From a virus (Duplodnaviria; Heunggongvirae; Uroviricota; Caudoviricetes), in the IMG/VR virus record IMGVR_UViG_651053022_000004, positions 1 through 64,000 of that record: a stretch of DNA of 64,000 nt; one strand, written 5' to 3'. Both the position numbers and the translations under genes were made by a program. Positions 2,062 through 54,964 of this stretch are shown piece after piece. Within the stretch, counting starts at the first letter, position 1. Each line of letters opens with the position of its first letter. The notes under the pieces were generated by a model, which ran no database searches, was not told where the DNA came from, and worked only from the letters and a program-made list of their open reading frames with translations.

Positions 2062-2279
2062 TTAATCCCCCTTTGTTTGCGGATAAGCTCCAGATCTTGC
2101 TGGCAACTGGCGCAAGTCCGACAACCCTGAACGGCCAGGCGTCTTCGTTCATCTATCGGATCGCCACACTCACAACAATGAGTGGCAGATACAGCCAGGT
2201 AGTTCAGGCGGCGCATTTTTATTGCTGTGTTGCGCTGTAATTCTTCTATTTCTGATGCTGAATCAATGATGTCTGCCAT
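2058..2279 (-). CDS. TraR/DksA-family C4 zinc-finger protein
   Basis: 73 aa with Cys-x-x-Cys ... Cys-x-x-Cys (CCECGDPI ... CRTCASC), the arrangement of phage TraR-like proteins. Confidence 0.7.
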   Translation of the reverse strand: MADIIDSASEIEELQRNTAIKMRRLNYLAVSATHCCECGDPIDERRRLAVQGCRTCASCQQDLELIRKQRGIK

Positions 2280-2330
2280 CTTTCATTAATCCCTGAACTG
2301 TTGGTTAATACGCTTGAGGGTGAATGCGAA

Positions 2331-2356
2331 CAATAAAAAAGGAGCCTGTAGCTCCC
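2331..2356 (-). terminator. Candidate rho-independent terminator within the early-left operon
   Basis: Hairpin ggagcctgtagctcc preceded on the plus strand by an A-run (U-run on the minus-strand transcript). Confidence 0.35.
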
Positions 2357-2377
2357 TGATAATTTTGCTTTTCATGT

Positions 2378-2659
2378 TCATCGTTCCTTAAAGACGCCGT
2401 TTAACATGCCGATTGCCAGGCTTAAATGAGTCGGTGTGAATCCCTTCAGCGTTACCGTTTCGCGGTGCTTCTTCAGTACGCTACGGCAAATGTCATTGAC
2501 GTTTTTATCCGGAAACTGCTGTCTGACTTTTTTGATTTCAGAATTAGCCTGACGGGCAATGCTGCGAAGGGCATTTTCTTGCTGAGGTGTCACTGAACAA
2601 GCCCCATGTCGGCAAGCATAAGCACACAGAATATGAAGCCCGCTGCCAGAAAAATGCAT
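2378..2659 (-). CDS. Hypothetical protein
   Basis: 93-aa ORF co-oriented in the early-left cluster; no recognisable motif. Confidence 0.3.
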   Translation of the reverse strand: MHFSGSGLHILCAYACRHGACSVTPQQENALRSIARQANSEIKKVRQQFPDKNVNDICRSVLKKHRETVTLKGFTPTHLSLAIGMLNGVFKER

Positions 2660-2669
2660 TCAGTGGTTG

Positions 2670-2861
2670 TCATACCTGGTCTCTCTCATCTGCTTCTGCT
2701 TTCGCCACCATCATTTCCAGCTTTTGTGAAAGGGATGTGGCTAACGTATGAAATTCTTCGTCTGTTTCTGCTGGTATTGGCACAAACCTGACTCCAATTT
2801 GAGCAAGGCTATGTGCCAAATCAATACTCGTTCTTAACTCAACAGGAGATGCTTTGTGCAT
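2670..2861 (-). CDS. Hypothetical protein
   Basis: 63-aa ORF co-oriented in the early-left cluster. Confidence 0.3.
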   Translation of the reverse strand: MHKASPVELRTSIDLAHSLAQIGVRFVPIPAETDEEFHTLATSLSQKLEMMVAKAEADERDQV

Positions 2862-3012
2862 ACCGCCCCCCGTTTATTATTTATCTCCTCAGCCAGCCGC
2901 TGGGCTTTCAGCGGATTTCGGATAACAGAAAGACCGTGAAATACCCAGCCTCGCTTTGTAACGGAGTAGACGAAAGTGATCGCGCCTACCCGGATATTAT
3001 CGTGAGGATGGG

Positions 3013-3693
3013 TCATCGCCATTGCTCTCCAAATACAAAACCAATTTCAGCCAGTGCTTCGTCCATTTTTTCGATGAACTCCGGCACCATCTCGTCAAAA
3101 CTCGCCATGTACTTTTCATCCCGCTCAACCACGACATAATGCAGGCCTTCACGCTTCATTCGTGGGTCATAGTTGGCAAAGTACCAGGCATCTTTTCGTG
3201 TCACCCACATGCTGTACTGCACCTGGGCCATGTAAGCCGACTTTATGGCCTCGAAACCACCGAGCCGGAACTTCATGAAATCCCGGGAGGTAAACGGGCA
3301 TTTCAGCTCAAGGCCATTGCCGTCACTGCATAAACCATCGGGAGAGCAGGCGGTGCGCATACTTTCGTCGCGATAGATGATCGGGGATTCAGTAACATTC
3401 ACGCCGGAAGTGAATTCAAACAGGGTTCTGGCGTCGTTCTCGTACTGTTTTCCCCACGCCAGCGCCTTAGCATTAACTTCCGGAGCCACACCGGTGCAAA
3501 CCTCAGCCAGCAGGGTGTGGAAGTAGGACATTTTCATGTCAGGCCACTTCTTTCCTGAGCGGGGCTTTGCTATCACGTTGTGAACTTCTGAAGCGGTGAT
3601 GACGCCGAGCCGTAATTTGTGCCATGCATCATCCCCCTGTTCGACAGCTCTCACGTCGATCCCGGTACGCTGCAGGATAATGTCCGGTGTCAT
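3013..3693 (-). CDS. exo: Lambda exonuclease (Red alpha)
   Basis: 226-aa translation ([43 protein letters not shown]...) matches lambda Exo as I recall it. Confidence 0.95.
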
Positions 3694-6748: not shown

Positions 6749-7288
6749 ATGCAACCACTTACATACCAACAGACTAGCGGATTTAGCCCGACTGCGGTGA
6801 TAAATCGTTCTCAAACAAAACAGGTGCCAGGCCACGAAAAAATCCGTGATGCCGTCCGCGCCTGGTCGGCTGTAGATAATCAGGATGTCGTTGCCACACT
6901 CATTGTGAATGAGTATCTGGAGCAGGGCGGCGGCACCATCGATTTCCCTGATGATGTCAGCCGTGCACGCCAGAAGCTGTTCCGCTTCCTCGATAACAAA
7001 TTCGATTCTGAAAAATACCGAAATAACGTGCGTGAACTGACCCCGGCAATTCTGGCGGTACTACCGCTGGAATATCGCGGTTACCTGGTTGAGCAGGATA
7101 GCTTCATGGCTAGGTTGGCTGAAATGGAAAAGGAACTCAGTGAGGCAAAACAGGCTGTCATTCTCAACGCACCACGCCACCAGAAACTGAAGGAAATTAG
7201 TGAAGGTATTGTGTCGATGTTTCGTGTGGACCCAGATCTGGCTGGTCCATTGATGGCGATGGTTACTACCATGCTGGGGGCGATATGA
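6749..7288 (+). CDS. YdaT-like / CII-position regulatory protein
   Basis: 179-aa ORF between cro-like and O; assignment by position and recollection of the YdaS/YdaT pairing in lambdoid prophages. Confidence 0.4.
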   Translation: MQPLTYQQTSGFSPTAVINRSQTKQVPGHEKIRDAVRAWSAVDNQDVVATLIVNEYLEQGGGTIDFPDDVSRARQKLFRFLDNKFDSEKYRNNVRELTPAILAVLPLEYRGYLVEQDSFMARLAEMEKELSEAKQAVILNAPRHQKLKEISEGIVSMFRVDPDLAGPLMAMVTTMLGAI

Positions 7289-7374
7289 CAGGTTCAGAAA
7301 TGGCGAAAGCCGGTCTGCTGGAACAGAACCGACTTTCAGGTGCAAATCGTAACACACTCATTGCGGGAGGAATT

Positions 7375-8304
7375 ATGGCAAACACTGCTGAGATATTCAA
7401 TTTTCCAGTGCCGGATGCGGCACAAAAGGAGCCGCGCGTGGCAGATCTCGATGATGGTTATACGCGCATTGCAAATGAGTTGCTGGAAGCTGTGATGCTG
7501 GCCGGATTAACACAGCACCAGCTTCTGGTCTTTCTGGCTGTCATGCGCAAAACATATGGCTTTAATAAAAAACTGGATTGGGTTAGCAACGAGCAACTTT
7601 CCGAATTAACCGGGATATTGCCGCACAAGTGTTCTGCTGCAAAAAGTGTTCTGGTAAAGCGTGGGATTTTTATTCAGAGCGGGCGGAATACCGGCATTAA
7701 TAATGTGGTCAGTGAATGGTCAACATTACCCGAATCAGGTAAGAAAAATAAAGTTTACCTGAAAGAGGTAAATTTACCTGAATCAGGTAAAAAAAGTTTA
7801 CCCAAATCAGGTAAAGGCGTTTACCCGAATCAGGTAAACACAAAAGACAAACTAACAAAAGACAATATAAAACCTTTTTCGTCCGAGAATTCTGGCGAAT
7901 CCTCTGACCAACCAGAAAACGATCTTCCTGTGGTGAAACCGGATGCTGCAATTCAGAGCGGCAGCAAGTGGGGGACAGCAGAAGACCTGACCGCCGCAGA
8001 GTGGATGTTTGACATGGTGAAGACCATCGCGCCATCAGCCAGAAAACCGAATTTTGCAGGGTGGGCTAACGATATCCGCCTGATGCGTGAACGTGACGGA
8101 CGTAACCACCGCGACATGTGCGTGCTGTTCCGCTGGGCATGCCAGGACAACTTCTGGTCCGGTAACGTGCTAAGTCCGGCCAAACTCCGCGACAAGTGGA
8201 CCCAACTCGAAATCAACCGTAACAAGCAACAGGCAGGCGTGACAGCTAGCAAACCAAAACTCGACCTGACAAACACAGACTGGATTTACGGGGTGGATCT
8301 ATGA
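7375..8304 (+). CDS. O: Replication initiator O (start at internal ATG after a GGAGG motif)
   Basis: Translation from MANTAEIFNF... aligns with lambda O (VADLDDGY..., LRKTYG...); origin iterons embedded in the coding sequence. Confidence 0.9.
   Translation: MANTAEIFNFPVPDAAQKEPRVADLDDGYTRIANELLEAVMLAGLTQHQLLVFLAVMRKTYGFNKKLDWVSNEQLSELTGILPHKCSAAKSVLVKRGIFIQSGRNTGINNVVSEWSTLPESGKKNKVYLKEVNLPESGKKSLPKSGKGVYPNQVNTKDKLTKDNIKPFSSENSGESSDQPENDLPVVKPDAAIQSGSKWGTAEDLTAAEWMFDMVKTIAPSARKPNFAGWANDIRLMRERDGRNHRDMCVLFRWACQDNFWSGNVLSPAKLRDKWTQLEINRNKQQAGVTASKPKLDLTNTDWIYGVDL
7727..7875. repeat. Replication origin: five ~17-bp iterons plus an A-rich flank inside the O gene
   Basis: ttacccgaatcaggtaa, ttacctgaaagaggtaa, ttacctgaatcaggtaa, ttacccaaatcaggtaa, ttacccgaatcaggtaa at ~23-bp spacing, followed by acaaaagacaaactaacaaaagacaatataaaa. 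Confidence 0.8.
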
Positions 8305-26058: not shown

Positions 26059-28612
26059 ACCGGTAGGCGATCTGGTCGTTGATTTGAGTCTGGATGCGGC
26101 CAGATTTGACGAGCAGATGGCCAGAGTCAGGCGTCATTTTTCCGGTACGGAAAGTGATGCGAAAAAAACAGCGGCAGTCGTTGAACAGTCGCTGAGCCGA
26201 CAGGCGCTGGCTGCACAGAAAGCGGGGATTTCCGTCGGGCAGTATAAAGCCGCCATGCGTATGCTGCCTGCACAGTTCACCGACGTGGCCACGCAGCTTG
26301 CAGGCGGGCAAAGTCCGTGGCTGATCCTGCTGCAACAGGGGGGGCAGGTGAAGGACTCCTTCGGCGGGATGATCCCCATGTTCAGGGGGCTTGCCGGTGC
26401 GATCACCCTGCCGATGGTGGGGGCCACCTCGCTGGCGGTGGCGACCGGTGCGCTGGCGTATGCCTGGTATCAGGGCAACTCAACCCTGTCCGATTTCAAC
26501 AAAACGCTGGTCCTTTCCGGCAATCAGGCGGGTCTGACGGCAGATCGTATGCTGGTCCTGTCCAGAGCCGGGCAGGCGGCAGGGCTGACGTTTAACCAGA
26601 CCAGCGAGTCACTCAGCGCACTGGTTAAGGCGGGGGTAAGCGGTGAGGCTCAGATTGCGTCCATCAGCCAGAGTGTGGCGCGTTTCTCCTCTGCATCCGG
26701 CGTGGAGGTGGACAAGGTCGCTGAAGCCTTCGGGAAGCTGACCACAGACCCGACGTCGGGGCTGACGGCGATGGCACGCCAGTTCCATAACGTGACGGCG
26801 GAGCAGATTGCGTATGTTGCTCAGTTGCAGCGTTCCGGCGATGAAGCCGGGGCATTGCAGGCGGCGAACGAGGCCGCAACGAAAGGGTTTGATGACCAGA
26901 CCCGCCGCCTGAAAGAGAACATGGGCACGCTGGAGACCTGGGCAGACAGGACTGCGCGGGCATTCAAATCCATGTGGGATGCGGTGCTGGATATTGGTCG
27001 TCCTGATACCGCGCAGGAGATGCTGATTAAGGCAGAGGCTGCGTTTAAGAAAGCAGACGACATCTGGAATCTGCGCAAGGATGATTATTTTGTTAACGAT
27101 GAAGCGCGGGCGCGTTACTGGGATGATCGTGAAAAGGCCCGTCTTGCGCTTGAAGCCGCCCGAAAGAAGGCTGAACAGCAGAGTCAACAGGACAAAAATG
27201 CGCAGCAGCAGAGCGATACCGAAGCGTCACGGCTGAAATATACCGAAGAGGCGCAGAAGGCTTACGAACGGCTGCAGACGCCGCTGGAGAAATATGCCGC
27301 CCGTCAGGAAGAACTGAATAAGGCCCTGAAAGACGGAAAAATCCTGCAGGCAGATTACAACACGCTGATGGCGGCAGCGAAAAAGGACTATGAAACGACA
27401 CTGAAAAAGCCGAAGCAGTCCGGCGTGAAGGTGTCTGCGGGCGATCGTCAGGAAGACAGTGCTCATGCTGCCCTGCTGACGCTTCAGGCTGAACTCCGGA
27501 CGCTGGAGAAGCATGCCGGAGCAAATGAGAAAATCAGCCAGCAGCGCCGGGATTTGTGGAAGGCGGAGAGTCAGTTCGCGGTACTGGAGGAGGCGGCGCA
27601 ACGTCGCCAGCTGTCTGTACAGGAGAAATCCCTGCTGGCGCATAAAGATGAGACGCTGGAGTACAAACGCCAGCTGGCTGCACTTGGCGACAAGGTTACG
27701 TATCAGGAGCGCCTGAACGCGCTGGCGCAGCAGGCGGATAAATTCGCACAGCAGCAACGGGCAAAACGGGCCGCCATTGATGCGAAAAGCCGGGGGCTGA
27801 CTGACCGGCAGGCAGAACGGGAAGCCACGGAACAGCGCCTGAAGGAACAGTATGGCGATAATCCGCTGGCGCTGAATAACGTCATGTCAGAGCAGAAAAA
27901 GACCTGGGCGGCTGAAGACCAGCTTCGCGGGAACTGGATGGCAGGCCTGAAGTCCGGCTGGAGTGAGTGGGAAGAGAGCGCCACGGACAGTATGTCGCAG
28001 GTAAAAAGTGCAGCCACGCAGACCTTTGATGGTATTGCACAGAATATGGCGGCGATGCTGACCGGCAGTGAGCAGAACTGGCGCAGCTTCACCCGTTCCG
28101 TGCTGTCCATGATGACAGAAATTCTGCTTAAGCAGGCAATGGTGGGGATTGTCGGGAGTATCGGCAGCGCCATTGGCGGGGCTGTTGGTGGCGGCGCATC
28201 CGCGTCAGGCGGTACAGCCATTCAGGCCGCTGCGGCGAAATTCCATTTTGCAACCGGAGGATTTACGGGAACCGGCGGCAAATATGAGCCAGCGGGGATT
28301 GTTCACCGTGGTGAGTTTGTCTTCACGAAGGAGGCAACCAGCCGGATTGGCGTGGGGAATCTTTACCGGCTGATGCGCGGCTATGCCACCGGCGGTTATG
28401 TCGGTACACCGGGCAGCATGGCAGACAGCCGGTCGCAGGCGTCCGGGACGTTTGAGCAGAATAACCATGTGGTGATTAACAACGACGGCACGAACGGGCA
28501 GATAGGTCCGGCTGCTCTGAAGGCGGTGTATGACATGGCCCGCAAGGGTGCCCGTGATGAAATTCAGACACAGATGCGTGATGGTGGCCTGTTCTCCGGA
28601 GGTGGACGATGA
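26051..28612 (+). CDS. H: Tape measure protein H
   Basis: 853-aa translation (MAEPVGDLVVDLSLDAARFDEQMARVRRHFSGTESDAKK...) matches lambda H. Confidence 0.97.
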   Translation: MAEPVGDLVVDLSLDAARFDEQMARVRRHFSGTESDAKKTAAVVEQSLSRQALAAQKAGISVGQYKAAMRMLPAQFTDVATQLAGGQSPWLILLQQGGQVKDSFGGMIPMFRGLAGAITLPMVGATSLAVATGALAYAWYQGNSTLSDFNKTLVLSGNQAGLTADRMLVLSRAGQAAGLTFNQTSESLSALVKAGVSGEAQIASISQSVARFSSASGVEVDKVAEAFGKLTTDPTSGLTAMARQFHNVTAEQIAYVAQLQRSGDEAGALQAANEAATKGFDDQTRRLKENMGTLETWADRTARAFKSMWDAVLDIGRPDTAQEMLIKAEAAFKKADDIWNLRKDDYFVNDEARARYWDDREKARLALEAARKKAEQQSQQDKNAQQQSDTEASRLKYTEEAQKAYERLQTPLEKYAARQEELNKALKDGKILQADYNTLMAAAKKDYETTLKKPKQSGVKVSAGDRQEDSAHAALLTLQAELRTLEKHAGANEKISQQRRDLWKAESQFAVLEEAAQRRQLSVQEKSLLAHKDETLEYKRQLAALGDKVTYQERLNALAQQADKFAQQQRAKRAAIDAKSRGLTDRQAEREATEQRLKEQYGDNPLALNNVMSEQKKTWAAEDQLRGNWMAGLKSGWSEWEESATDSMSQVKSAATQTFDGIAQNMAAMLTGSEQNWRSFTRSVLSMMTEILLKQAMVGIVGSIGSAIGGAVGGGASASGGTAIQAAAAKFHFATGGFTGTGGKYEPAGIVHRGEFVFTKEATSRIGVGNLYRLMRGYATGGYVGTPGSMADSRSQASGTFEQNNHVVINNDGTNGQIGPAALKAVYDMARKGARDEIQTQMRDGGLFSGGGR

Positions 28613-28938
28613 AGACCTTCCGCTGGAAAGTGAAACCCGGTATGGATGTGGCTTCGGTCCCTTCTGTAAGAAAGGTGCGCTTTGGTGATGGCTATTCTCA
28701 GCGAGCGCCTGCCGGGCTGAATGCCAACCTGAAAACGTACAGCGTGACGCTTTCTGTCCCCCGTGAGGAGGCCACGGTACTGGAGTCGTTTCTGGAAGAG
28801 CACGGGGGCTGGAAATCCTTTCTGTGGACGCCGCCTTATGAGTGGCAGCAGATAAAGGTGACCTGCGCAAAATGGTCGTCGCGGGTCAGTATGCTGCGTG
28901 TTGAGTTCAGCGCAGAGTTTGAACAGGTGGTGAACTGA
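28609..28938 (+). CDS. M: Minor tail protein M
   Basis: 109-aa translation (MKTFRWKVKPGMDVASVPSVRKVRFGDGYSQRAPAGLNANLKTY...) matches lambda M. Confidence 0.95.
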   Translation: MKTFRWKVKPGMDVASVPSVRKVRFGDGYSQRAPAGLNANLKTYSVTLSVPREEATVLESFLEEHGGWKSFLWTPPYEWQQIKVTCAKWSSRVSMLRVEFSAEFEQVVN

Positions 28939-29636
28939 TGCAGGATATCCGGCAGGAAACACTGAATGAATGCACCCGTGCGGAGCAGTCGGCCAGCGTG
29001 GTGCTCTGGGAAATCGACCTGACAGAGGTCGGTGGAGAACGTTATTTTTTCTGTAATGAGCAGAACGAAAAAGGTGAGCCGGTCACCTGGCAGGGGCGAC
29101 AGTATCAGCCGTATCCCATTCAGGGGAGCGGTTTTGAACTGAATGGCAAAGGCACCAGTACGCGCCCCACGCTGACGGTTTCTAACCTGTACGGTATGGT
29201 CACCGGGATGGCGGAAGATCTGCAGAGTCTGGTCGGCGGAACGGTGGTCCGGCGTAAGGTTTACGCCCGTTTTCTGGATGCGGTGAACTTCGTCAACGGA
29301 AACAGTTATGCCGATCCGGAGCAGGAGGTGATCAGCCGCTGGCGCATTGAGCAGTGCAGCGAACTGAGCGCGGTGAGTGCCTCCTTTGTACTGTCCACGC
29401 CGACGGAAACGGATGGCGCTGTTTTTCCGGGACGTATCATGCTGGCCAACACCTGCACCTGGACCTATCGCGGTGACGAGTGCGGTTATAGCGGTCCGGC
29501 TGTCGCGGATGAATATGACCAGCCAACGTCCGATATCACGAAGGATAAATGCAGCAAATGCCTGAGCGGTTGTAAGTTCCGCAATAACGTCGGCAACTTT
29601 GGCGGCTTCCTTTCCATTAACAAACTTTCGCAGTAA
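28938..29636 (+). CDS. L: Minor tail protein L
   Basis: 232-aa translation (MQDIRQETLNECTRAEQSASVVLWEIDLTEVGGERYFFCNE...) matches lambda L. Confidence 0.95.
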   Translation: MQDIRQETLNECTRAEQSASVVLWEIDLTEVGGERYFFCNEQNEKGEPVTWQGRQYQPYPIQGSGFELNGKGTSTRPTLTVSNLYGMVTGMAEDLQSLVGGTVVRRKVYARFLDAVNFVNGNSYADPEQEVISRWRIEQCSELSAVSASFVLSTPTETDGAVFPGRIMLANTCTWTYRGDECGYSGPAVADEYDQPTSDITKDKCSKCLSGCKFRNNVGNFGGFLSINKLSQ

Positions 29637-29640
29637 TCCC

Positions 29641-30069
29641 ATGACACAGACAGAATCAGCGATTCTGGCGCACGCCCGGCGATGTGCGCCAGCGGAGTCG
29701 TGTGGCTTCGTGGTGAGAACGCCGAAGGGGGAAAGATATTTTCCCTGCGTGAATATCTCCGGTGAGCCGGAGGCGTATTTCCGGATGTCGCCGGAGGACT
29801 GGCTGCGGGCAGAGATGCAGGGTGAGATTGTGGCGCTGGTCCACAGCCACCCCGGTGGTCTGCCCTGGCTGAGTGAGGCTGACAGGCGGCTGCAGGTGCA
29901 GAGTGATTTGCCGTGGTGGCTGGTCTGCCGGGGGGCGATTCATAAGTTCCGCTGTGTGCCGCATCTTACCGGGCGGCGCTTTGAGCACGGGGTGACGGAC
30001 TGTTACACGCTGTTCCGGGATGCTTATCATCTGGCGGGGATAAACCATAGAGCAGAATTATTTTTCTGA
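29641..30069 (+). pseudogene. K: Tail tip assembly protein K, truncated at a junction after codon ~133
   Basis: Product matches the full-length K paralogue at 49661-50404 up to ...TLFRDAYHLAG, then diverges to INHRAELFF-stop in AT-rich sequence. Confidence 0.85.
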
Positions 30070-30237
30070 TGTTGTTTATTGTTTATTTAAATGCAGGGTG
30101 GTTTATATCTCGTCTTGTAGTTTATCCATGCATATCTGCTTGATAATCAGGTTTTTATTTAAGGTATGGTTTTGTGTTTTTTCTGTATTACATGTCAGGT
30201 ATTTTAAAGAATCATTTTTCAGATGGTGGAAAGAACC

Positions 30238-30426
30238 ATGGCATTTAAACACTATGATGTTGTCAGGGCGGCGTCGCCGTCAGATCTTGCGGAAAAGCTG
30301 ACACATAAACTGAAAGAGGGCTGGCAGCCGTTTGGTAGTCCGGTGGCCATAACCCCTTATACCCTGATGCAGGCGATTGCAGCAGAAGGTGATGTGGTGG
30401 TCAGTGGTGCAACTGAGCCGGAGTGA
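30238..30426 (+). CDS. DUF1737-like small protein typical of lambdoid late regions
   Basis: 62-aa product MAFKHYDVVRAASPSDLAEKLTHKLKEGWQPFGSPVAITPYTLMQAIAAEGDVVVSGATEPE; assignment from recollection of proteins encoded upstream of holins. Confidence 0.45.
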   Translation: MAFKHYDVVRAASPSDLAEKLTHKLKEGWQPFGSPVAITPYTLMQAIAAEGDVVVSGATEPE

Positions 30427-30669
30427 TACTACGTCATCGTACTGGCCCGGCATTCTAGGCCATAAAGGACAGTCTGGCAGTGGGACTAAATGCACTGACG
30501 CTGACGGATATTACCAAAAATGCAACGTATGGCGTTGAGATAGAAAGTCTGGTGCTGGAGATAAATGTACCGGCATCATCATAAAAAGTGAGCCAGTCAA
30601 ATGGAAGGTATCGTTAAACTCACCGGTAGTGTCAGTGGGTCGTCTGAGATGCCTGCATGAGTTATCAGA

Positions 30670-30699
30670 GCCATCAGTACTTAACTGGTGGCTTTTTTT
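30670..30699 (+). terminator. Candidate late-leader terminator upstream of the holin
   Basis: Hairpin gccatcagtacttaactggtggc followed by a T-run. Confidence 0.45.
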
Positions 30700-30734
30700 A
30701 TTGTTGTCAGCTTCCGGATAACGGGAGACGGGGT

Positions 30735-30950
30735 ATGGACCAGATGGAAAAAATCACAACAGGTGTGTCATACACCACGTCAGCGGTGGGAACGGGCTAC
30801 TGGTTCCTGCAGTTGCTGGACAGGGTTTCCCCGTCTCAGTGGGCGGCAATAGGCGTGCTGGGGAGTCTGCTGTTTGGGCTGCTGACATATCTGACTAACC
30901 TGTATTTCAAAATCAGAGAGGACCGTCGTAAGGCGGCACGGGGAGAGTAA
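30735..30950 (+). CDS. Class II holin, S21-like pinholin (start at internal ATG)
   Basis: 71-aa product [71 protein letters not shown], two TM segments; resembles phage 21 S as I recall it. Confidence 0.8.
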
Positions 30951-30954
30951 TTCA

Positions 30955-31305
30955 ATGACTCAAAACTATGAACTGATTGTGAAAGGGATCCGCAATTTTG
31001 AGAATAAAGTTACGGTAACTTTAGCGTTACGGGACAAAAAACGCTTTGACGGTGAAATTTTTGACCTGGACATCTCGCTGGACCGTGTTGAAGGTGCCGC
31101 GCTGGAGTTTTATGAGGCAGCAGCCAGAAGGAGCATCAGACAGGTCTTCCTGGATGTTGCTGCCGCGTTATGTGAAGGGGATGAGCAGTCGCCGGAAAAG
31201 CGCCCCGTAATTTTAGAGGCGCAGAATGTATGGATAACCTACAAAGGAAAGCTACCGGGAAGAATTACTGGTTCTCTGAAGACTCCTCCGGAATCACAAC
31301 CTTAA
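30955..31305 (+). CDS. Chimeric ORF: YdfR-like (DUF1327-like) N-terminus fused to a duplicated segment
   Basis: 116 aa; N-terminal ~73 aa resemble the small protein found between holin and endolysin in some lambdoid prophages; the last ~39 codons are the segment repeated at 32087-32205. Confidence 0.4.
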   Translation: MTQNYELIVKGIRNFENKVTVTLALRDKKRFDGEIFDLDISLDRVEGAALEFYEAAARRSIRQVFLDVAAALCEGDEQSPEKRPVILEAQNVWITYKGKLPGRITGSLKTPPESQP

Positions 31306-31339
31306 GTCACTGACCGGAACAGATAAACCTGTCCGTGGG

Positions 31340-31867
31340 GCAAAAATCAGATACGGCCTGTCGGCTGCCGTTCTGGCACTGATTGCCGTCGGTGCGCCCG
31401 CGCCTGATATTCTCGACCAGTTTCTGGATGAAAAAGAAGGTAACCACACAACGGCATACCGCGATGGGTCCGGCATCTGGACCATCTGTCGGGGGGCCAC
31501 GATGGTGGATGGAAAACCCGTTTTTCCCGGTATGAAACTGTCGAAGGAAAAATGCGACCAGGTCAACGCCATTGAGCGTGATAAGGCGCTGGCATGGGTG
31601 GAGCGCAATATTAAAGTACCACTGACCGAACCACAAAAAGCGGGTATAGCGTCATTCTGTCCCTATAACATTGGCCCCGGTAAGTGTTTCCCGTCGACGT
31701 TTTATAAGCGGCTGAATGCCGGTGATCGTAAGGGCGCATGCGAGGCGATTCGCTGGTGGATAAAAGATGGTGGGCGCGATTGCCGCATACGTTCAAATAA
31801 CTGCTATGGACAGGTTATTCGTCGTGACCAGGAAAGCGCATTAGCCTGTTGGGGGATAGAGCAGTGA
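31340..31867 (+). pseudogene. SAR-endolysin (lysozyme-like) copy A lacking a start codon
   Basis: Colinear with the intact copy at 32547-33080 from its third codon on, but the upstream in-frame sequence has no ATG/GTG/TTG before the catalytic region; only an internal ATG at 31502. Confidence 0.65.
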
Positions 31868-32268
31868 GCAGAGTCGCCGCGATTATTTATGCTTTGGTTA
31901 TCTGCATCATCGTCTGCCTGTCGTGGGCGGTCAATCATTACCGTGATAACGCCATCGCCTACAAAGAACAGCGTGATAAAAAAGTCAGTGAGCTGAAGCA
32001 GTCGATCGCCACCATCGCTGACATGCAGCAGCGTCAGCGTGATGTTGCTGCACTCGATGCAAAGTACTCGAGAGAATTAGCCAATGCGAAAGTCGCCGGA
32101 AAAGCGCCCCGTAATTTTAGAGGCGCAGGATGTGTTGATAACCTACAGAGGAAAACTACCGGGAATAATTACGGGTTCTCTGAAGAGTCCGCCGAAATGG
32201 TAATTTTACCAGCATATTTTTCATCCAGTAATACAGCAAGCCGCCTGAAAGAGTCTTGTTGTTCCTGA
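31864..32268 (+). pseudogene. Rz-like spanin 5' fragment (about 75 codons) fused to the duplicated segment
   Basis: [40 protein letters not shown]... is Rz-like up to ...ELANAK, then continues into the 32087-32205 repeat in an unrelated frame. Confidence 0.6.
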
Positions 32269-32441
32269 GACCATTTGGGATTGCATGATTCAAACTGGAT
32301 TGATGCCAGCGTTGATTGCATCTGTTCCCTTGGAATTGAGAATGCCAGATATGAGAAGGCGACGGTAAGGGTATTCACGTCTTCCCGAAGCCTGGAAATG
32401 CTGTCGAGCAACTCCTGTAGAGAAATGGTGTTATTGTCCAT
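32169..32441 (-). CDS. Hypothetical protein
   Basis: 90-aa minus-strand ORF between the duplicated segment and endolysin copy B; its last ~12 codons lie in the repeat. Confidence 0.3.
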
Positions 32442-32546
32442 AAATAATCCTCATGATTGTATTGACCTGTTAGCAGCCTGAGGCAACAGGCTGGAACTGA
32501 TAAACATATCCAGGGCTCAGAAACCGATAAATCCTGATAAATATCC

Positions 32547-33080
32547 ATGAACGCAAAAATCAGATACGGCCTGTCGGCTGCCGTTCTGGCGCTGATTGCC
32601 GCTGGTGCGCCTGCGCCTGACATTCTCGACCAGTTTCTGGATGAAAAGGAAGGTAACCACACCACGGCATACCGTGATGGCGCGGGTATCTGGACCATCT
32701 GCCGCGGTGCCATCCTGGTGGATGGCAAACCTGTCGTTCCGGGCATGAAGTTGTCGAAGGAAAAATGCGACCGGGTTAACGCCATTGAGCGTGATAAGGC
32801 GCTGGCATGGGTGGAGAAAAACATCAAAGTGCCATTGACCGAACCCCAGAAAGCGGGGATCGCGTCATTCTGTCCGTACAACATTGGTCCCGGTAAGTGT
32901 TTCCCGTCGACGTTTTACAGACGAATTAATGCAGGTGATCGCAGGGGAGCATGCGAAGCGATTCGCTGGTGGATTAAGGACGGTGGCAGAGACTGCCGTA
33001 TTCGCTCAAATAACTGTTACGGTCAGGTATTCCGTCGTGACCAGGAGAGCGCGCTGGCGTGCTGGGGAATCGACAGATAA
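32547..33080 (+). CDS. SAR endolysin (lysozyme-like), intact copy B
   Basis: 177 aa with N-terminal signal-anchor-release-like segment (MNAKIRYGLSAAVLALIAAGAPAP) and E...D...T catalytic-triad spacing (DEKEGNHTTAYRDGAGIWTI). Confidence 0.8.
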   Translation: MNAKIRYGLSAAVLALIAAGAPAPDILDQFLDEKEGNHTTAYRDGAGIWTICRGAILVDGKPVVPGMKLSKEKCDRVNAIERDKALAWVEKNIKVPLTEPQKAGIASFCPYNIGPGKCFPSTFYRRINAGDRRGACEAIRWWIKDGGRDCRIRSNNCYGQVFRRDQESALACWGIDR

Positions 33081-33172
33081 GCAGAATATTTTGCTGAAAA
33101 ATGAGGTTGGCCAACGCGGGCGGATAACACGAAGTCCTGTGAACTGGCAAAACCTAAGTGAATAAAAGTAAA

Positions 33173-33210
33173 AACCCCGTTTGTTGGCAGCAAGCGGGGT
33201 TTTGTTTTTA
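33173..33210 (+). terminator. Candidate terminator downstream of endolysin copy B
   Basis: Hairpin ccccgtttg...caagcgggg followed by ttttgttttt. Confidence 0.5.
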
Positions 33211-33274
33211 TGGCAGTAAGCTATGGGAGGCTGCCTTGATTGATTTTAGCAAACTGATTAGGGAGTTGCGACTC

Positions 33275-33370
33275 ATGATTAGTCAATTACCAAACTGGAA
33301 ATTTTTGCTGGTCTGGAGCATCCCTTTTTTATGGGTAGTATCCCAGTTAATTGTGGCAATTAAGGGGTAG
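33275..33370 (+). CDS. Small hydrophobic peptide ORF 1
   Basis: 31 codons (MISQLPNWKFLLVWSIPFLWVVSQLIVAIKG), one predicted TM helix. Confidence 0.3.
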   Translation: MISQLPNWKFLLVWSIPFLWVVSQLIVAIKG

Positions 33371-33372
33371 CT

Positions 33373-33504
33373 ATGTCAGACAAACTCATAACGCCGGCAA
33401 AGGTCCTGTGTGTGATTGTCGGTATTTCATTTTCACTAATGCTGGTTGCTCTTTTTCTGTCCCTCGCCTGGGTGATGTTGTCTTCGTCGGGGCTGCTGGG
33501 GTGA
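33373..33504 (+). CDS. Small hydrophobic peptide ORF 2
   Basis: 43 codons (MSDKLITPAKVLCVIVGISFSLMLVALFLSLAWVMLSSSGLLG); GGGG motif 7 nt upstream of the ATG. Confidence 0.4.
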   Translation: MSDKLITPAKVLCVIVGISFSLMLVALFLSLAWVMLSSSGLLG

Positions 33505-34869: not shown

Positions 34870-35235
34870 ATGGCTGAGCTTCGTACACTCCAGAGCAGAA
34901 TCAAAACACTGAATACCCGACGGGTGAATATTCTGAAGGGGGAGCAGCGTCGTGTCAGTGGCAGTGCACGTGTTTCCCTCAAGCGTCATATCTGGCTGAG
35001 GGACGCCGGGCAGTGCTGTATCTGTGGTCGTGTGGTTGACCTCTGTGACAGTGAACTCGATCACCGAATTGCACTTCAGTTCGGTGGTGGTAATGAGGAG
35101 ACGAATCTTTGGACGCTCTGTGCCGAATGCCATCGACAAAAGTCTGCTCGTGAAGCGGCGAGTGGTATGCCGGACCCGACGCTGCCGGAGGTGTCCGGAG
35201 GTAGTGGCAGAGAGGACGACATCATCGGACTGTAA
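34870..35235 (+). CDS. HNH endonuclease upstream of a terminase small-subunit gene
   Basis: 121 aa with Cys-x-x-Cys ... DHRIALQFGG ... N ... CAECH motif arrangement typical of phage HNH nucleases. Confidence 0.8.
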   Translation: MAELRTLQSRIKTLNTRRVNILKGEQRRVSGSARVSLKRHIWLRDAGQCCICGRVVDLCDSELDHRIALQFGGGNEETNLWTLCAECHRQKSAREAASGMPDPTLPEVSGGSGREDDIIGL

Positions 35236-35326
35236 CCCAACCCGGGGGGGGTATCATCCGGCGTAAAAAACGATCGCTTTGGACACCGCGCCCCCTCTCA
35301 CGCAGAGAAAAAATTCCCGTTTCAGG

Positions 35327-35455
35327 GCAGTTAACATGTTAACTGGCTGCCCGGGCATTTTTGCGGTTTTTATCTTTATTATTCAGTTTGTTGTGCGGAA
35401 AAAATGTTAACAGGCTTTTTCAGCAAATGTTAACCAGGCAGCAGTTAACATTTGC
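35327..35455. promoter_or_regulatory. Cluster of five ATGTTAAC/GTTAACAT octamers upstream of terS (candidate terminase recognition site)
   Basis: gcagttaacatgttaactggc, aaaatgttaacagg, caaatgttaaccagg, gcagttaacatttgc within ~130 bp. Confidence 0.4.
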
Positions 35456-35525
35456 GGCATGAGACGCCGGGAAAAATGGGCTGAACCATACCCGGCTGAG
35501 TGCGTTCTGGACCCGGGAGGAGGCT

Positions 35526-36089
35526 GTGCTGACAACGCAAAAACGAAAATTTGCGCTGGCGCTCATGTCCGGGAAAAACAAAACAGCGTCAGCCATTGCC
35601 GCCGGTTATTCGGCGAAGACCGCCAGGGTTAAAGGCTCGCAGCTGGCAAAAGATCCTGAGGTGCTTGCGTTTATAGCCCGTAAACAATGCGAGACGGTGG
35701 AGGTGGATGAGGTTCCTGTTTACCGGCAGAAAAAATCAGAGCAGGAGGATAAACCCCGTCGCCGTGAGGCGGCTGCAATACCACAGCCGGACGAAAACAA
35801 TCTGGAGATGCCACCGTCCGCGGTGATGTCTCCTGGTATTGAATATATGGAGGATGGTCTTCCCGATCCGGTGAAAGCCATGGGGCGGATCCTGGTGGAA
35901 AACCTCTGCATTGATCCGAAACTGGCACTGGATGCGGCCTGGCGTCTGGCGCAGTTCACGCACCATAAAAAAGGGGATACCGGGAAAAAATCGGCAAAAG
36001 GTGATGCCGCGAAAAAAGCGGCTAACCGTTTTGCGGTGCCACCGCCCCCCCGACTGGTGGTGAATAACGATAATGAGGGCAACGGATGA
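35526..36089 (+). CDS. Terminase small subunit
   Basis: 187-aa ORF directly upstream of and overlapping the large terminase gene; N-terminal HTH-like region. Confidence 0.75.
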   Translation: MLTTQKRKFALALMSGKNKTASAIAAGYSAKTARVKGSQLAKDPEVLAFIARKQCETVEVDEVPVYRQKKSEQEDKPRRREAAAIPQPDENNLEMPPSAVMSPGIEYMEDGLPDPVKAMGRILVENLCIDPKLALDAAWRLAQFTHHKKGDTGKKSAKGDAAKKAANRFAVPPPPRLVVNNDNEGNG

Positions 36090-37747
36090 TACCTGTATGG
36101 AGCACAGCCTGCCCGGACTGGGCAGAGCGCCTGAAAAAGGGGCTGTCGATTATTCCGGATCCGATTTATCCGGACGAGGCCGCACATGCCCTGGCGATTT
36201 TTAAACAACTGCGGATTGTGGATGCACCTGGTAGCCCTACGTTCGGGGAGTCCTGTGCACCGTGGGTGTTTGACCTGGTGGCGGCCCTGTTTGGCTCCTA
36301 CGATGCGCAGACCGGTGTACGCCATATCAAGGAAGTTTTTATCCTTATCCCCAAGAAAAACTCGAAGTCCACGCTGGCCGCGGGGATCATGATGACTGCA
36401 CTGTTACTGAACTGGCGGCAGGCGGCGGGTTACACGATTCTGGCCCCGACTGTGGAGGTGGCGGCCAACGCCTTCAACCCTGCCCGGGATATGGTACGAC
36501 GTGACGATGATCTGGATGACCTCTGCCAGGTACAGACCCATATCCGGACCATCACCCACCGAGTGACGGACACCACCCTGAAGGTGGTGGCAGCCGATCC
36601 GAATACGGTGTCCGGTATCAAGTCCGTGGGTACGCTGATTGATGAGTTGTGGCTGTTTGGCAAGCAGTGCAAGGCGGAGGACATGTTACGTGAAGCCATA
36701 GGCGGCCTTGCCTCCCGCCCGGAAGGGTTTGTGGTGTATACGACCACCCAGTCGAATGAACCGCCCGCCGGGGTGTTCAGACAGAAACTGCAGTACGCCC
36801 GGGATGTGCGCGACGGCAAAATTCATGATCCGCACTTTCTGCCGGTGATATTTGAACACCCTCCTGAAATGGTGGAAAGCGGGACTAACCTGCTGATGGA
36901 AAACCTCGCCATGGTCAATCCGAATCTCGGCTATTCAGTGGATGAGGCCTTTCTGTACCGGGAGTACCGTAAAGCCCGGGAAGCCGGTGAAGAGACATTC
37001 CGGGGGTTCATGTCAAAACACGCCAATGTGGAAATTGGTCTTGCCCTGCGCTCTGACCGCTGGGCGGGGGCTGATTTCTGGGAAGAGCAGGGCCGTTGTA
37101 TCAGCCTGGACGATATCCTGCGTCGTGCTGATGTGGTGACGGTGGGGATTGACGGCGGAGGGCTGGATGATCTGCTGGGGATGTATGTGATTGGGCGTGA
37201 CCGGGAGACCCGCGAATGGCTGGGCTGGGGCCATGCCTGGGCGCATGAAACCGCGGTGGTCCGACGGAAGAGCGAGGCGTCCCGGTTTCAGGATCTTGTT
37301 GCCTGTGGAGATATGACCATTGTCCGGCGTGTCGGGGATGACACGGCGGAAGTGGCGGAATATGTGCGTCGCATTCATGAGGCTGAGTTACTGGACCATA
37401 TCGGTATTGACCCGTCAGGGGTGGGGCAGATTCTGGATTCACTGGCGGAAGCCGGGATCCCCGACGGAATTGTGGTGGGGATAAGCCAGGGCTGGAAACT
37501 GGGCGGGGCCATTAAAACCACCGAGCGCAAACTGGCTGAAGGGGTGCTGGTGCATGGTGACCAGCCCCTGATGGCCTGGTGTGTCGGCAATGCCCGGGTG
37601 GAGCCTAAAGGTAACGCCATTCTTATCACCAAACAGGCCAGTGGACGGGGAAAAATTGACCCGCTGATGGCGCTGTTCAATGCGGTCTCCCTGATGTCCC
37701 TTAACCCGGAACCGAAAAAGAAAGAATATGCGGTTTTTTTCATATAA
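36086..37747 (+). CDS. Terminase large subunit
   Basis: 553 aa; Walker-A-like ILIPKKNSKST; size and position typical. Confidence 0.85.
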   Translation: MIPVWSTACPDWAERLKKGLSIIPDPIYPDEAAHALAIFKQLRIVDAPGSPTFGESCAPWVFDLVAALFGSYDAQTGVRHIKEVFILIPKKNSKSTLAAGIMMTALLLNWRQAAGYTILAPTVEVAANAFNPARDMVRRDDDLDDLCQVQTHIRTITHRVTDTTLKVVAADPNTVSGIKSVGTLIDELWLFGKQCKAEDMLREAIGGLASRPEGFVVYTTTQSNEPPAGVFRQKLQYARDVRDGKIHDPHFLPVIFEHPPEMVESGTNLLMENLAMVNPNLGYSVDEAFLYREYRKAREAGEETFRGFMSKHANVEIGLALRSDRWAGADFWEEQGRCISLDDILRRADVVTVGIDGGGLDDLLGMYVIGRDRETREWLGWGHAWAHETAVVRRKSEASRFQDLVACGDMTIVRRVGDDTAEVAEYVRRIHEAELLDHIGIDPSGVGQILDSLAEAGIPDGIVVGISQGWKLGGAIKTTERKLAEGVLVHGDQPLMAWCVGNARVEPKGNAILITKQASGRGKIDPLMALFNAVSLMSLNPEPKKKEYAVFFI

Positions 37748-53863: not shown

Positions 53864-53983
53864 CCTCTCCATTAGTGAGTTGTATTGATCACAACTCTAC
53901 AAAGAATTCATTACTGGGTAGATGAAAATAGTTTCACTATGAATGGAGGAGGCTATGTCGGTGGCTTCTTCATTGGAGTACAT

Positions 53984-54334
53984 ATGCCCCCACGAATCCC
54001 ACGCGCCTGCCGTAAGCGTGGATGTGCAGGTACAACCACAGACAGTTCTGGTTACTGCGATAAACATCGTGGCGAAGGATGGGTACAGCATCAACGCGGA
54101 CTGAGCCGCCACCAGCGTGGCTATGGCTCGAAATGGGATGCCATACGTGCGCGCATACTGAAGCGTGATAATCATCTGTGTCAGAACTGCCTGCGCAATG
54201 GGAGAGCCGTTGAAGCCAGAACTGTGGACCACATCATTCCGAAAGCTCATGGTGGCACGGATGCAGACAGTAACCTGCAGAGTCTGTGCTGGCCCTGTCA
54301 TAAAGCAAAAACAGCGCGCGAACGCATCAATTGA
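53984..54334 (+). CDS. HNH endonuclease (start at internal ATG) upstream of terS
   Basis: Product MPPRIPRACRKRGCAGTTTDSSGYCDKHRGEG... with …DHIIPKAHGG…N…CWPCH… motif arrangement. Confidence 0.8.
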   Translation: MPPRIPRACRKRGCAGTTTDSSGYCDKHRGEGWVQHQRGLSRHQRGYGSKWDAIRARILKRDNHLCQNCLRNGRAVEARTVDHIIPKAHGGTDADSNLQSLCWPCHKAKTARERIN

Positions 54335-54481
54335 TAACAGTTCCCATCTGTAGGGGAGGGGCAGGCCAAATCTCTGCAACCCTGGCTGCTCAGTACCGCC
54401 GCCTGACCTTTCCTCGCATCGCCGCAGGTTCGAAAACTTTTTTTTGGAATGTGATTAAATGATTGATAGGTAAAACCGATT

Positions 54482-54964
54482 ATGTCTGGACCCCCGAAAA
54501 CCCCGCCACGCCTGCATTTGATACGAGGCAACCCCTCAAAGCGGCCAGTTAAAGACCTCAAAAAAACCGCTAAAAAGGATGAAAAAGGTCTCCCTAAAAT
54601 TCCGCAACATTTAGGGGCGCAGGGGAAGTACTGGTTCAGGCGAATGGCGGAAGAGCTGAATGCGGAAGGGATCATTTCTCAGCTTGATGCGCGTGCGCTT
54701 GAGCTACTGGTGGAAGCCTATACCGAATACCGGCATCACTGCGAAACACTCGATGTTGAGGGGTACACCTACCGCTCGAAAACGCAGAACGGTGATGTGC
54801 TGATTAAGGCACACCCGGCTGCTGCGATGAAAGCGGATGCCTGGAAGCGGATCCGGGCGATGCTTGCAGAATTTGGTATGTCACCGGCAAGCCGGGCAAA
54901 AGTAAATACCGCCGGACCGGATAATGTTGATCCGCTGGCAGAGCTTTTAAAAGCGAGAGACTGA
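54482..54964 (+). CDS. Terminase small subunit (P27-like)
   Basis: 160-aa ORF directly upstream of and abutting the large terminase gene. Confidence 0.75.
   Translation: MSGPPKTPPRLHLIRGNPSKRPVKDLKKTAKKDEKGLPKIPQHLGAQGKYWFRRMAEELNAEGIISQLDARALELLVEAYTEYRHHCETLDVEGYTYRSKTQNGDVLIKAHPAAAMKADAWKRIRAMLAEFGMSPASRAKVNTAGPDNVDPLAELLKARD

Follow-up and report, generated by a model that had tools for sequence, protein, structure and literature searches.

In the 64,000-nucleotide stretch of viral DNA analyzed here (hereafter the window, to whose first letter all coordinates refer), five copies of the octamer ATGTTAAC are clustered between the HNH endonuclease gene and the small terminase gene (terS) of the second packaging module, and we consider it likely that they are where the small terminase recognizes the cos site of an HNH-dependent, cos-packaging prophage, as an array with the function of a cosB. 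A first-pass annotation of the sequence had already read these octamers as a terminase recognition site; this reading is supported by the published ends of the phage Lys8385Vzw, by the conserved positions of the sites among relatives, by their concerted change, and by their covariation with TerS. As a refinement, the octamers would be a recognition array standing beside a separate cut core that is conserved in the family, and not the cut site itself. We document below the anatomy of the motif, its conservation and covariation, the fold of the TerS N-terminal domain, and, by homology, the location of the ends.

Results

Exact matches to ATGTTAAC on the two strands of the window number five, all of them inside 35330-35451 and none elsewhere (copies at 35330 on the minus strand, at 35336, 35404, and 35427 on the plus strand, and at 35444 on the minus strand), whereas dinucleotide shuffles predict ~1.42 for the whole 64 kb. 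When 100 sequences of 64 kb were simulated under a Markov-1 model, any 8-mer reached five copies within 130 bp only once, and a scan of all 8-mers in the window found just one other with at least five copies per 130 bp, namely TCAGGTAA, with six copies at ~7735. The latter copies (7733-7860) lie inside an ORF (7285-8304) for a lambda-type replication protein O (Pfam Phage_rep_O) and presumably are the origin iterons of the first prophage module; their recovery indicates that the scan detects real protein-binding arrays. The clustering of five octamers upstream of the second-module terS that had been noted in the first-pass annotation is thus confirmed, with all five copies in 35330-35451, and the frequency of the motif is not that of the background, as the shuffles, the 8-mer scan, and the simulations all give values far below the one observed.

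The cluster occupies part of the 290-bp gap between the HNH gene and terS, and its last copy ends 75 bp short of the terS start (GTG, 35526). Copies 1 and 2 share letters and together make up the palindrome GTTAACATGTTAAC (35330-35343), with 7-mer sites at +34 and +41 as numbered from the cut described below. They are followed by an AT-rich spacer (35344-35403), in which a conserved ATTCA-N4-TGTT block is found along with T-tracts at +62, +71, +79, and +91, by copy 3 (35404-35411, plus strand, site +109), by copy 4 (35427-35434, plus strand, site +132), and by copy 5 (35444-35451, minus strand, site +148), which is inverted relative to copy 4; the two belong to a perfect inverted repeat whose 12-nt arms, GCAAATGTTAAC and GTTAACATTTGC, stand 9 nt apart. 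An IHF site in the AT-rich spacer was considered and rejected, as WATCAANNNNTTR has no match with one mismatch or fewer in 35236-35525; phased T-tracts are found there instead, and it is plausible that they bend the DNA of 35344-35403. A terminator scan of the octamer region found no intrinsic terminator, and a promoter was likewise rejected because the only promoter-like match in the region, on the minus strand, consists of the motif itself.

The HNH gene (34870-35235, plus strand; Pfam HNH PF01844, PHROG 589) encodes the accessory nuclease of HK97-type cos packaging and lies directly upstream of cos and terS in most of the relatives examined. The product of terS (35526-36089, plus strand) is a small terminase of the Terminase_2 family (Pfam PF03592, matched over residues 2-57 only, at 36.0 bits against a gathering cut-off of 26.1), and that of terL (36086-37747, plus strand; Pfam PF03354 and PF20441) is an HK97-type large terminase, comprising ATPase and nuclease, whose sole sequence match in the PDB is HK97 TerL (6z6d; E 1e-9, residues 84-534). 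A fused prohead protease-capsid gene and then a portal gene follow downstream of terL.

The N-terminal helix-turn-helix DNA-binding domain of TerS (residues 1-56, encoded at 35526-35693, plus strand) was modeled by AlphaFold2 with a pLDDT of ~95 and has helices at residues 4-14, 19-25, 33-41, and 44-56. Its top Foldseek match is the DNA-binding domain of SF6 TerS (4zc3; target-normalised TM 0.84, rmsd 1.6 Å, 30% identity), followed by 2cmp and 3zqq and then by the small terminases of PaP3 (6w7t) and NV1; a profile search with the TerS N terminus matched 4zc3, 2cmp, and 3zqp. In the model, residue 25 closes helix 2, and residues 32 and 35 form the N-cap and first turn of helix 3, which are the usual base-reading positions of helix-turn-helix proteins; it is these three residues that track the motif type (see below). 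Judging from these assignments, the second module is a chimeric packaging system, widespread among pathogenic E. coli, that combines an HK97-type TerL and HNH protein with an SF6-type TerS. TerS bodies are also mosaic among relatives, the same N-terminal domain being joined to varied linker and C-terminal segments, and in one TerS from Escherichia albertii (P0001, 202 aa) the low-confidence linker carries a 15-residue tandem duplication, DKPRRREAAAIPQPD.

The position of the cut can be taken from a published phage. Zhang et al. (2021) induced the Stx1 phage Lys8385Vzw and, using PhageTerm, found cos packaging with 3' cohesive ends CGCCCCCCCT (PMC7946995). Lys8385Vzw, a ~97%-identical phage, conserves all five octamers; its record (MT225100) begins CTCACGCAGAGAAAAAATTCCCGTTTCAGGGCAGTTAACATGTTAAC (first letters CTCACGCAGAG), which aligns from window position 35297 onward, and its final letters, GGACACCGCCCCCCCT, align up to 35296. 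Transferred by homology from this one PhageTerm analysis, the top-strand cut in the window would fall between 35296 and 35297, and we infer a bottom-strand cut between 35286 and 35287, so that the predicted 10-nt 3' overhang is 35287-35296 (CGCGCCCCCT), with one mismatch relative to Lys8385Vzw. The octamers span +34 to +155 from this cut, on its terS side, and terS starts at +230. The published ends therefore map not elsewhere but beside the cluster, 34 bp upstream of the first octamer. Among phage records, we found only Lys8385Vzw to be linearised at the second-module cos, and no second independent mapping of these termini.

Three conserved elements surround the cut. The cos cut core, GGACACCGCGCCCCCT (35281-35296, plus strand), which contains the ends of Lys8385Vzw, is conserved across genera. 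A G-run element, CCCGGGGGGGGTATCATCC (35241-35259, plus strand; -56 to -38 from the cut), is present in most relatives, including those in other genera and satellite-like loci, and may belong to a cut or termination core. Finally, the block CTCACGCAGAGAAAAAATTCCCGTT (35297-35321, plus strand; +1 to +25), which includes an A-tract, hardly varies within groups A and B or among distant relatives. In the PPompW prophages (L177; LC567826.1, PPompW_699, 1046-2504), the IS110-family element ISEc20 borders directly on the G-run that shortly precedes the cos core, at a junction equivalent to about window position 35248; the lysis and HNH genes are absent between the tRNAs downstream of Q and cos, and these prophages, without an HNH gene of their own, have yet kept cos, the array, and terS/terL.

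Relatives were examined at two distances. A species-genome scan with a single-protein query yielded no confirmed relatives, and an alignment query was needed. The distant set comprised Salmonella phage FSL SP-016 and 22 relatives in other genera of the Enterobacterales, the latter with TerS 33-49% identical. Throughout this set, one finds the conserved cos core CCGGGGGGGG ... GGACACCGCGCCCCCT, followed across the cut by CTCACGCACAGAAAAAATTCCC, and terS starts only ~40 bp past the cut. In most of these relatives the terS start is ATG-TTA-AC preceded by GT(A/T)AAC, which creates a palindrome or near-palindrome at +34/+41, just as copies 1 and 2 do in the window. At the terS start, the distant relatives have this palindrome alone, to which many add one GTAAACA upstream, and the family thus does not require five copies. 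The extra GTAAACA(T) copy (L083-L104, L178) lies ~20-30 bp upstream of the cut (e.g., gagGTAAACATcgatcg) and places motif copies on both sides of it; the equivalent in the window has degenerated to GCGTAAAAAACGATCG.

The window lineage has ~190 extra bp, carrying copies 3-5, before its actual terS start, GTG-CTG-ACA, and the Shine-Dalgarno sequence ahead of the palindrome has decayed (GGAGGG in relatives, CAGGGC in the window). Two coding explanations for the palindrome were rejected in this lineage: a small peptide gene starting at its ATG (24 aa in the window, MLTGCPGIFAVFIFIIQFVVRKKC) is not conserved, reading MLIPF* in L170 and MLTT* in L176, and a translation-start context is not its purpose, with terS beginning 190 bp downstream and the Shine-Dalgarno sequence decayed. 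Retention of the palindrome with neither a conserved ORF nor an intact Shine-Dalgarno sequence indicates that it is maintained for a reason that is neither coding nor translational. The array seems, from these comparisons, to have grown out of a single palindrome overlapping the terS start codon.

Closer relatives in E. coli (TerS 65-86% identical) have sites at +34 (minus), +41 (plus), +109 (plus), +132/133 (plus), and +148/149 (minus), and these positions are fixed in nine diverged loci of both motif types in which the intervening spacers have diverged to ~50-70% identity; three loci have one additional copy, on a 10-11-bp insertion. Given that ATGTTAAC is the terS start in most relatives from other genera, and that copies 2-4 extend to resemble ATGTTAACAGGGCAG (MLTGQ), the octamers could instead have arisen as the start of terS (ATG-TTA-AC, Met-Leu-Thr) was repeatedly duplicated and be non-functional relics, conserved merely through the youth of the lineage, and most E. 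coli copies of the region are indeed at least 95% identical. We regard this as very improbable, because relics would decay independently, whereas the five dispersed copies have held their positions and switched jointly (see below) between spacers diverged to the extent just given. In addition, eight-base repeats are too short for gene conversion, and two of the copies are inverted, which is not a product of simple tandem duplication of a gene start.

The joint switch was seen in L163, L172, L173, and L174, in which all five copies read ATGTTTAY in place of ATGTTAAC; the copies visible in the truncated loci L169 and L175 are of the same type. Motif type follows three residues of TerS (25, 32, and 35), which are A or T, T, and V with the sequence of the window (type A) and E, S, and C with ATGTTTAY (type B, of which P0023 is an example). 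The closest comparison is that of L170 (type A) with L172 (type B), where the first 60 residues of TerS differ solely at these three positions. Since the B-type N terminus is joined to several different TerS bodies, a prospective test was possible, and the motif was predicted correctly from the TerS N terminus in 4 of 4 cases (type B for P0018, P0005, and P0013 and type A for P0022). Across 77 distinct sequences, 72 with T32/V35 had only TGTTAAC and 5 with E25/S32/C35 had only TGTTTAY, with no exceptions and no mixed arrays, and a single sequence had only four 7-mer matches. These counts must be read knowing that the array and the TerS N terminus are contiguous (within 200 bp), such that some co-inheritance is expected from linkage alone, and that the A/B split may represent only one or a few evolutionary events.

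Repeats located between HNH and terS could also be recognized by something else than TerS, be it a nucleoid protein of the host, TerL, the HNH protein, or some further phage regulator, and lambda cosB does contain a host IHF site. However, L170 (TGTTAAC) and L172 (TGTTTAY) encode HNH proteins that are 100% identical, and the TerL N termini of L165 (type A) and L169 (type B) are 99% identical, so motif type is independent of both proteins; the exchangeable block contains no other gene. A host factor is made unlikely by the finding of both motif types in E. coli, as one host protein cannot explain the switch, and the region has no match to the IHF consensus at the threshold used above. We therefore judge a non-TerS factor to be decidedly unlikely. 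That the octamers would be read by the helix-turn-helix of TerS is suggested instead by the covariation with residues 25, 32, and 35 in an SF6-type fold.

A further alternative places the true TerS site in the +1 to +25 A-tract block, as in HK97, and gives the octamers another role, for example as an operator controlling terS expression. No sequence downstream of the cut is more conserved than this block, which occupies the place where HK97 TerS binds, the latter needing just +15 to +29, A-tract included; the overlap of the palindrome with the terS start codon and ribosome-binding-site spacer in other genera would, moreover, be a natural place for autoregulation. We consider this alternative unlikely. 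HK97 TerS belongs to a different family (Terminase_4) that has no helix-turn-helix, and the block is unchanged across groups A, B, and C although the DNA-binding domain of TerS changes. In the window lineage, terS starts 75-190 bp downstream of the sites, which lie within a late operon, and the promoter scan is empty apart from matches caused by the motif; an operator, furthermore, would still have TerS binding the octamers. The block may nonetheless, by analogy with HK97, be an alternative or additional recognition element beside the array that we favor.

The window contains two other packaging modules. The first has a textbook lambda cos, with GGGCGGCGACCT at 15511-15522 and CGTTTCC-type R elements (15511-15700), followed by Nu1 at 15700 and A. 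The third is of the HK97/P27 type, and 147 bp separate its HNH gene (53885-54334) from a Terminase_4 terS (54482-54964); this is the standard HK97/SfV arrangement, in which cos would be expected in 54335-54481. The first-pass annotation had contrasted the second module with the third in this respect, and the contrast holds in that the 8-mer scan found no cluster of three or more copies before the third-module terS, probably because its TerS is of the HK97-type Terminase_4 family and that of HK97 needs only one 15-bp site. At the junction of the first-module tail with the second-module lysis genes (28500-33500), the best complete E. coli genome covered 77% in IS-interrupted pieces, and no complete E. 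coli genome in the collection had at least 80% of the segment contiguously; the window resembles a string of truncated prophage modules whose arrangement is rare or absent among complete E. coli genomes.

The cut core also occurs in three satellite-like elements of E. coli. In L166 and L167, a primase and small ORFs accompany a terS (1501-1989) whose product is 47% identical to that of the window, with no adjacent terL or HNH gene; both additionally encode a 307-aa capsid homologue (2152-3075; 23% identity, E 1e-19, to the capsid half of the window's protease-capsid fusion). The third, L171, has AlpA and terS alone (terS at 1501-1974). All three have the same cos cut core and different repeats upstream of terS, namely two copies of AAAAGTTACAC in each of L166 and L167 and at least six copies of GTTACA(C) in L171. 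They look like PICI-type satellites of the second-module phage family, equipped with TerS and recognition repeats of their own.

The second module is found in many Stx1- and Stx2-converting phages and is 93-100% identical to those such as BP-4795, 2851, 1717, and YYZ-2008; vB_EcoS-569R3 and the EC958 prophage are 100% identical to the prophage of the window. Its HNH-terS intergenic region was found in 1,277 of 5,426 complete E. coli genomes and was unannotated in every case; type A arrays were present in 1,244 of these 5,426 genomes, at up to 7 copies per genome, and type B arrays in 11. In complete E. coli genomes, the copies total ~3,000. Several chromosome records (NZ_CP115324.1, NZ_CP123332.1, NZ_CM169497.1, and NZ_CP071711.1) and one phage record (PV189401.1) end ~560 bp after the intergenic match, and in NZ_CP076709.1 the match ends ~575 bp before the end of the record. 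At this distance, position 1 of the record is the start of the second-module terL, and the opening of records at this gene is probably an artefact of an automatic reorientation tool rather than biology.

Discussion

The findings above suggest the following model of packaging by the second module. TerL, with the HNH protein, would nick the cut core (about -56 to +25; 35241-35321) to generate the 10-nt 3' ends at 35287-35296. On the first-packaged side, an oligomer of TerS would read 7-8-bp sites through its N-terminal SF6-type helix-turn-helix domains, these sites being the inverted pair at +34/+41 and those at +109, +132, and +148, the last of them inverted. The spacer, rich in T-tracts, would probably bend the DNA and so gather the palindrome near the cut and the three sites beyond the spacer on a single TerS oligomer, and the resulting complex would position TerL at the cut and decide which DNA is packaged. 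The binding of TerS to the octamers, the bending of the DNA, and a role in the initiation of packaging are what we infer from sequence comparisons and a predicted fold. The array and the DNA-binding domain of TerS may further behave as a single exchangeable specificity cassette, in which TGTTAAC would be paired with T32/V35, TGTTTAY with E25/S32/C35, and GTTACAC with a third N-terminal variant found in the satellite-like elements.

A broader picture is possible but, in our judgment, somewhat short of probable. It would have an invariant cut core, shared by many enterobacterial genera and by satellites, beside a swappable array/terS cassette that sets what is packaged, with hijacking by satellites and an origin of the array in an autoregulatory palindrome. 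If this were true, the cassette would amount to a readable code, T32/V35 specifying TGTTAAC, S32/C35 (with E25) specifying TGTTTAY, and the third variant specifying GTTACAC, and in strains with up to seven copies of cos it would decide the cross-packaging of Stx prophages, defective prophages, and satellites. In that case, the hijacking route of L166, L167, and L171 would be one that has yet to be described among cos satellites of Gram-negative bacteria, the satellite keeping the cut site of the helper while supplying its own TerS, its own repeats, and, in L166 and L167, its own capsid homologue. The array itself would have evolved from an autoregulatory palindrome lying on the terS start codon.

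Sequence recognition by small terminases of the helix-turn-helix type is still poorly understood, and the pairing of two TerS residues with two bases provides a concrete and directly testable hypothesis for this class. Knowledge of the cut core and the array would let one predict which prophages, prophage remnants, and satellites a given terminase packages, and the two together would constitute the minimal element for cos plasmids or cosmids of the second-module phage family. Our literature searches found no paper containing the palindrome sequence GTTAACATGTTAAC, and neither there nor in the records did we find a description of the recognition site for the second-module cos of this E. coli/Stx phage family. 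As far as these searches show, an element of a well-known, cosB-like kind is newly described here in a very common family of E. coli and Shiga-toxin phages.

Of the known systems, HK97 shares with the second module an HNH gene directly upstream of cos and a homologous TerL, and its recognition region, like the one proposed for the window, lies downstream of the cut. Cutting in HK97 is stimulated by its HNH protein and leaves 10-nt 3' overhangs; to judge by the ends reported for the ~97%-identical Lys8385Vzw, the second module would have cohesive ends of this kind as well. HK97 is the only HNH-type cos system with a mapped site, which is a single 15-bp sequence with an A-tract at +15 to +29 (PMC11331095). 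HK97 TerS, however, is a ring without helix-turn-helix domains that threads DNA and uses this one site, whereas TerS of the window has an SF6-type helix-turn-helix and a five-site array spanning +34 to +155. The small terminases of PaP3 and of SF6 and SPP1 (G1P) have the same N-terminal DNA-binding fold as TerS of the window, and according to models for small terminases of this type, repeated sub-sites are read by helix-turn-helix domains that are neighbors in the ring (PMC7672466). In contrast to the window module, SF6 and SPP1 (pacL/pacR boxes) are headful (pac) packagers without defined cohesive ends, and the sequences they recognize are unrelated to the octamers; the module of the window would not be headful, as defined cohesive ends were reported for a near-identical phage.

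A parallel in organization is cosB of lambda and phage 21 (R3-I1-R2-R1, bound by the winged helix-turn-helix of gpNu1), where short repeats likewise lie in both orientations between the nick site and the small-terminase gene. In both lambda cosB and the array of the window, the repeats are on the first-packaged side, with a proximal site and a distal group split by a potentially bending segment. Lambda and its PICIs conserve cosN but differ in cosB, which matches the DNA-binding domain of each type of TerS (PMC6739421), and the window would appear to follow the same PICI/helper logic, with specificity residing in the array and the TerS N-terminal domain and the nick site being shared. The two systems differ in that TerS of the window belongs to Terminase_2 and not to Phage_Nu1, with no sequence or family relationship between them; in that an HNH partner would take part in generating the ends, predicted to be 10-nt 3' overhangs, as opposed to the 12-nt 5' overhangs of lambda; and in that the sites are 7-8 bp with a palindromic proximal site and no IHF consensus, as opposed to 16 bp in lambda. 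The array of the window would extend the logic of lambda cosB to a chimeric system and introduce no new principle.
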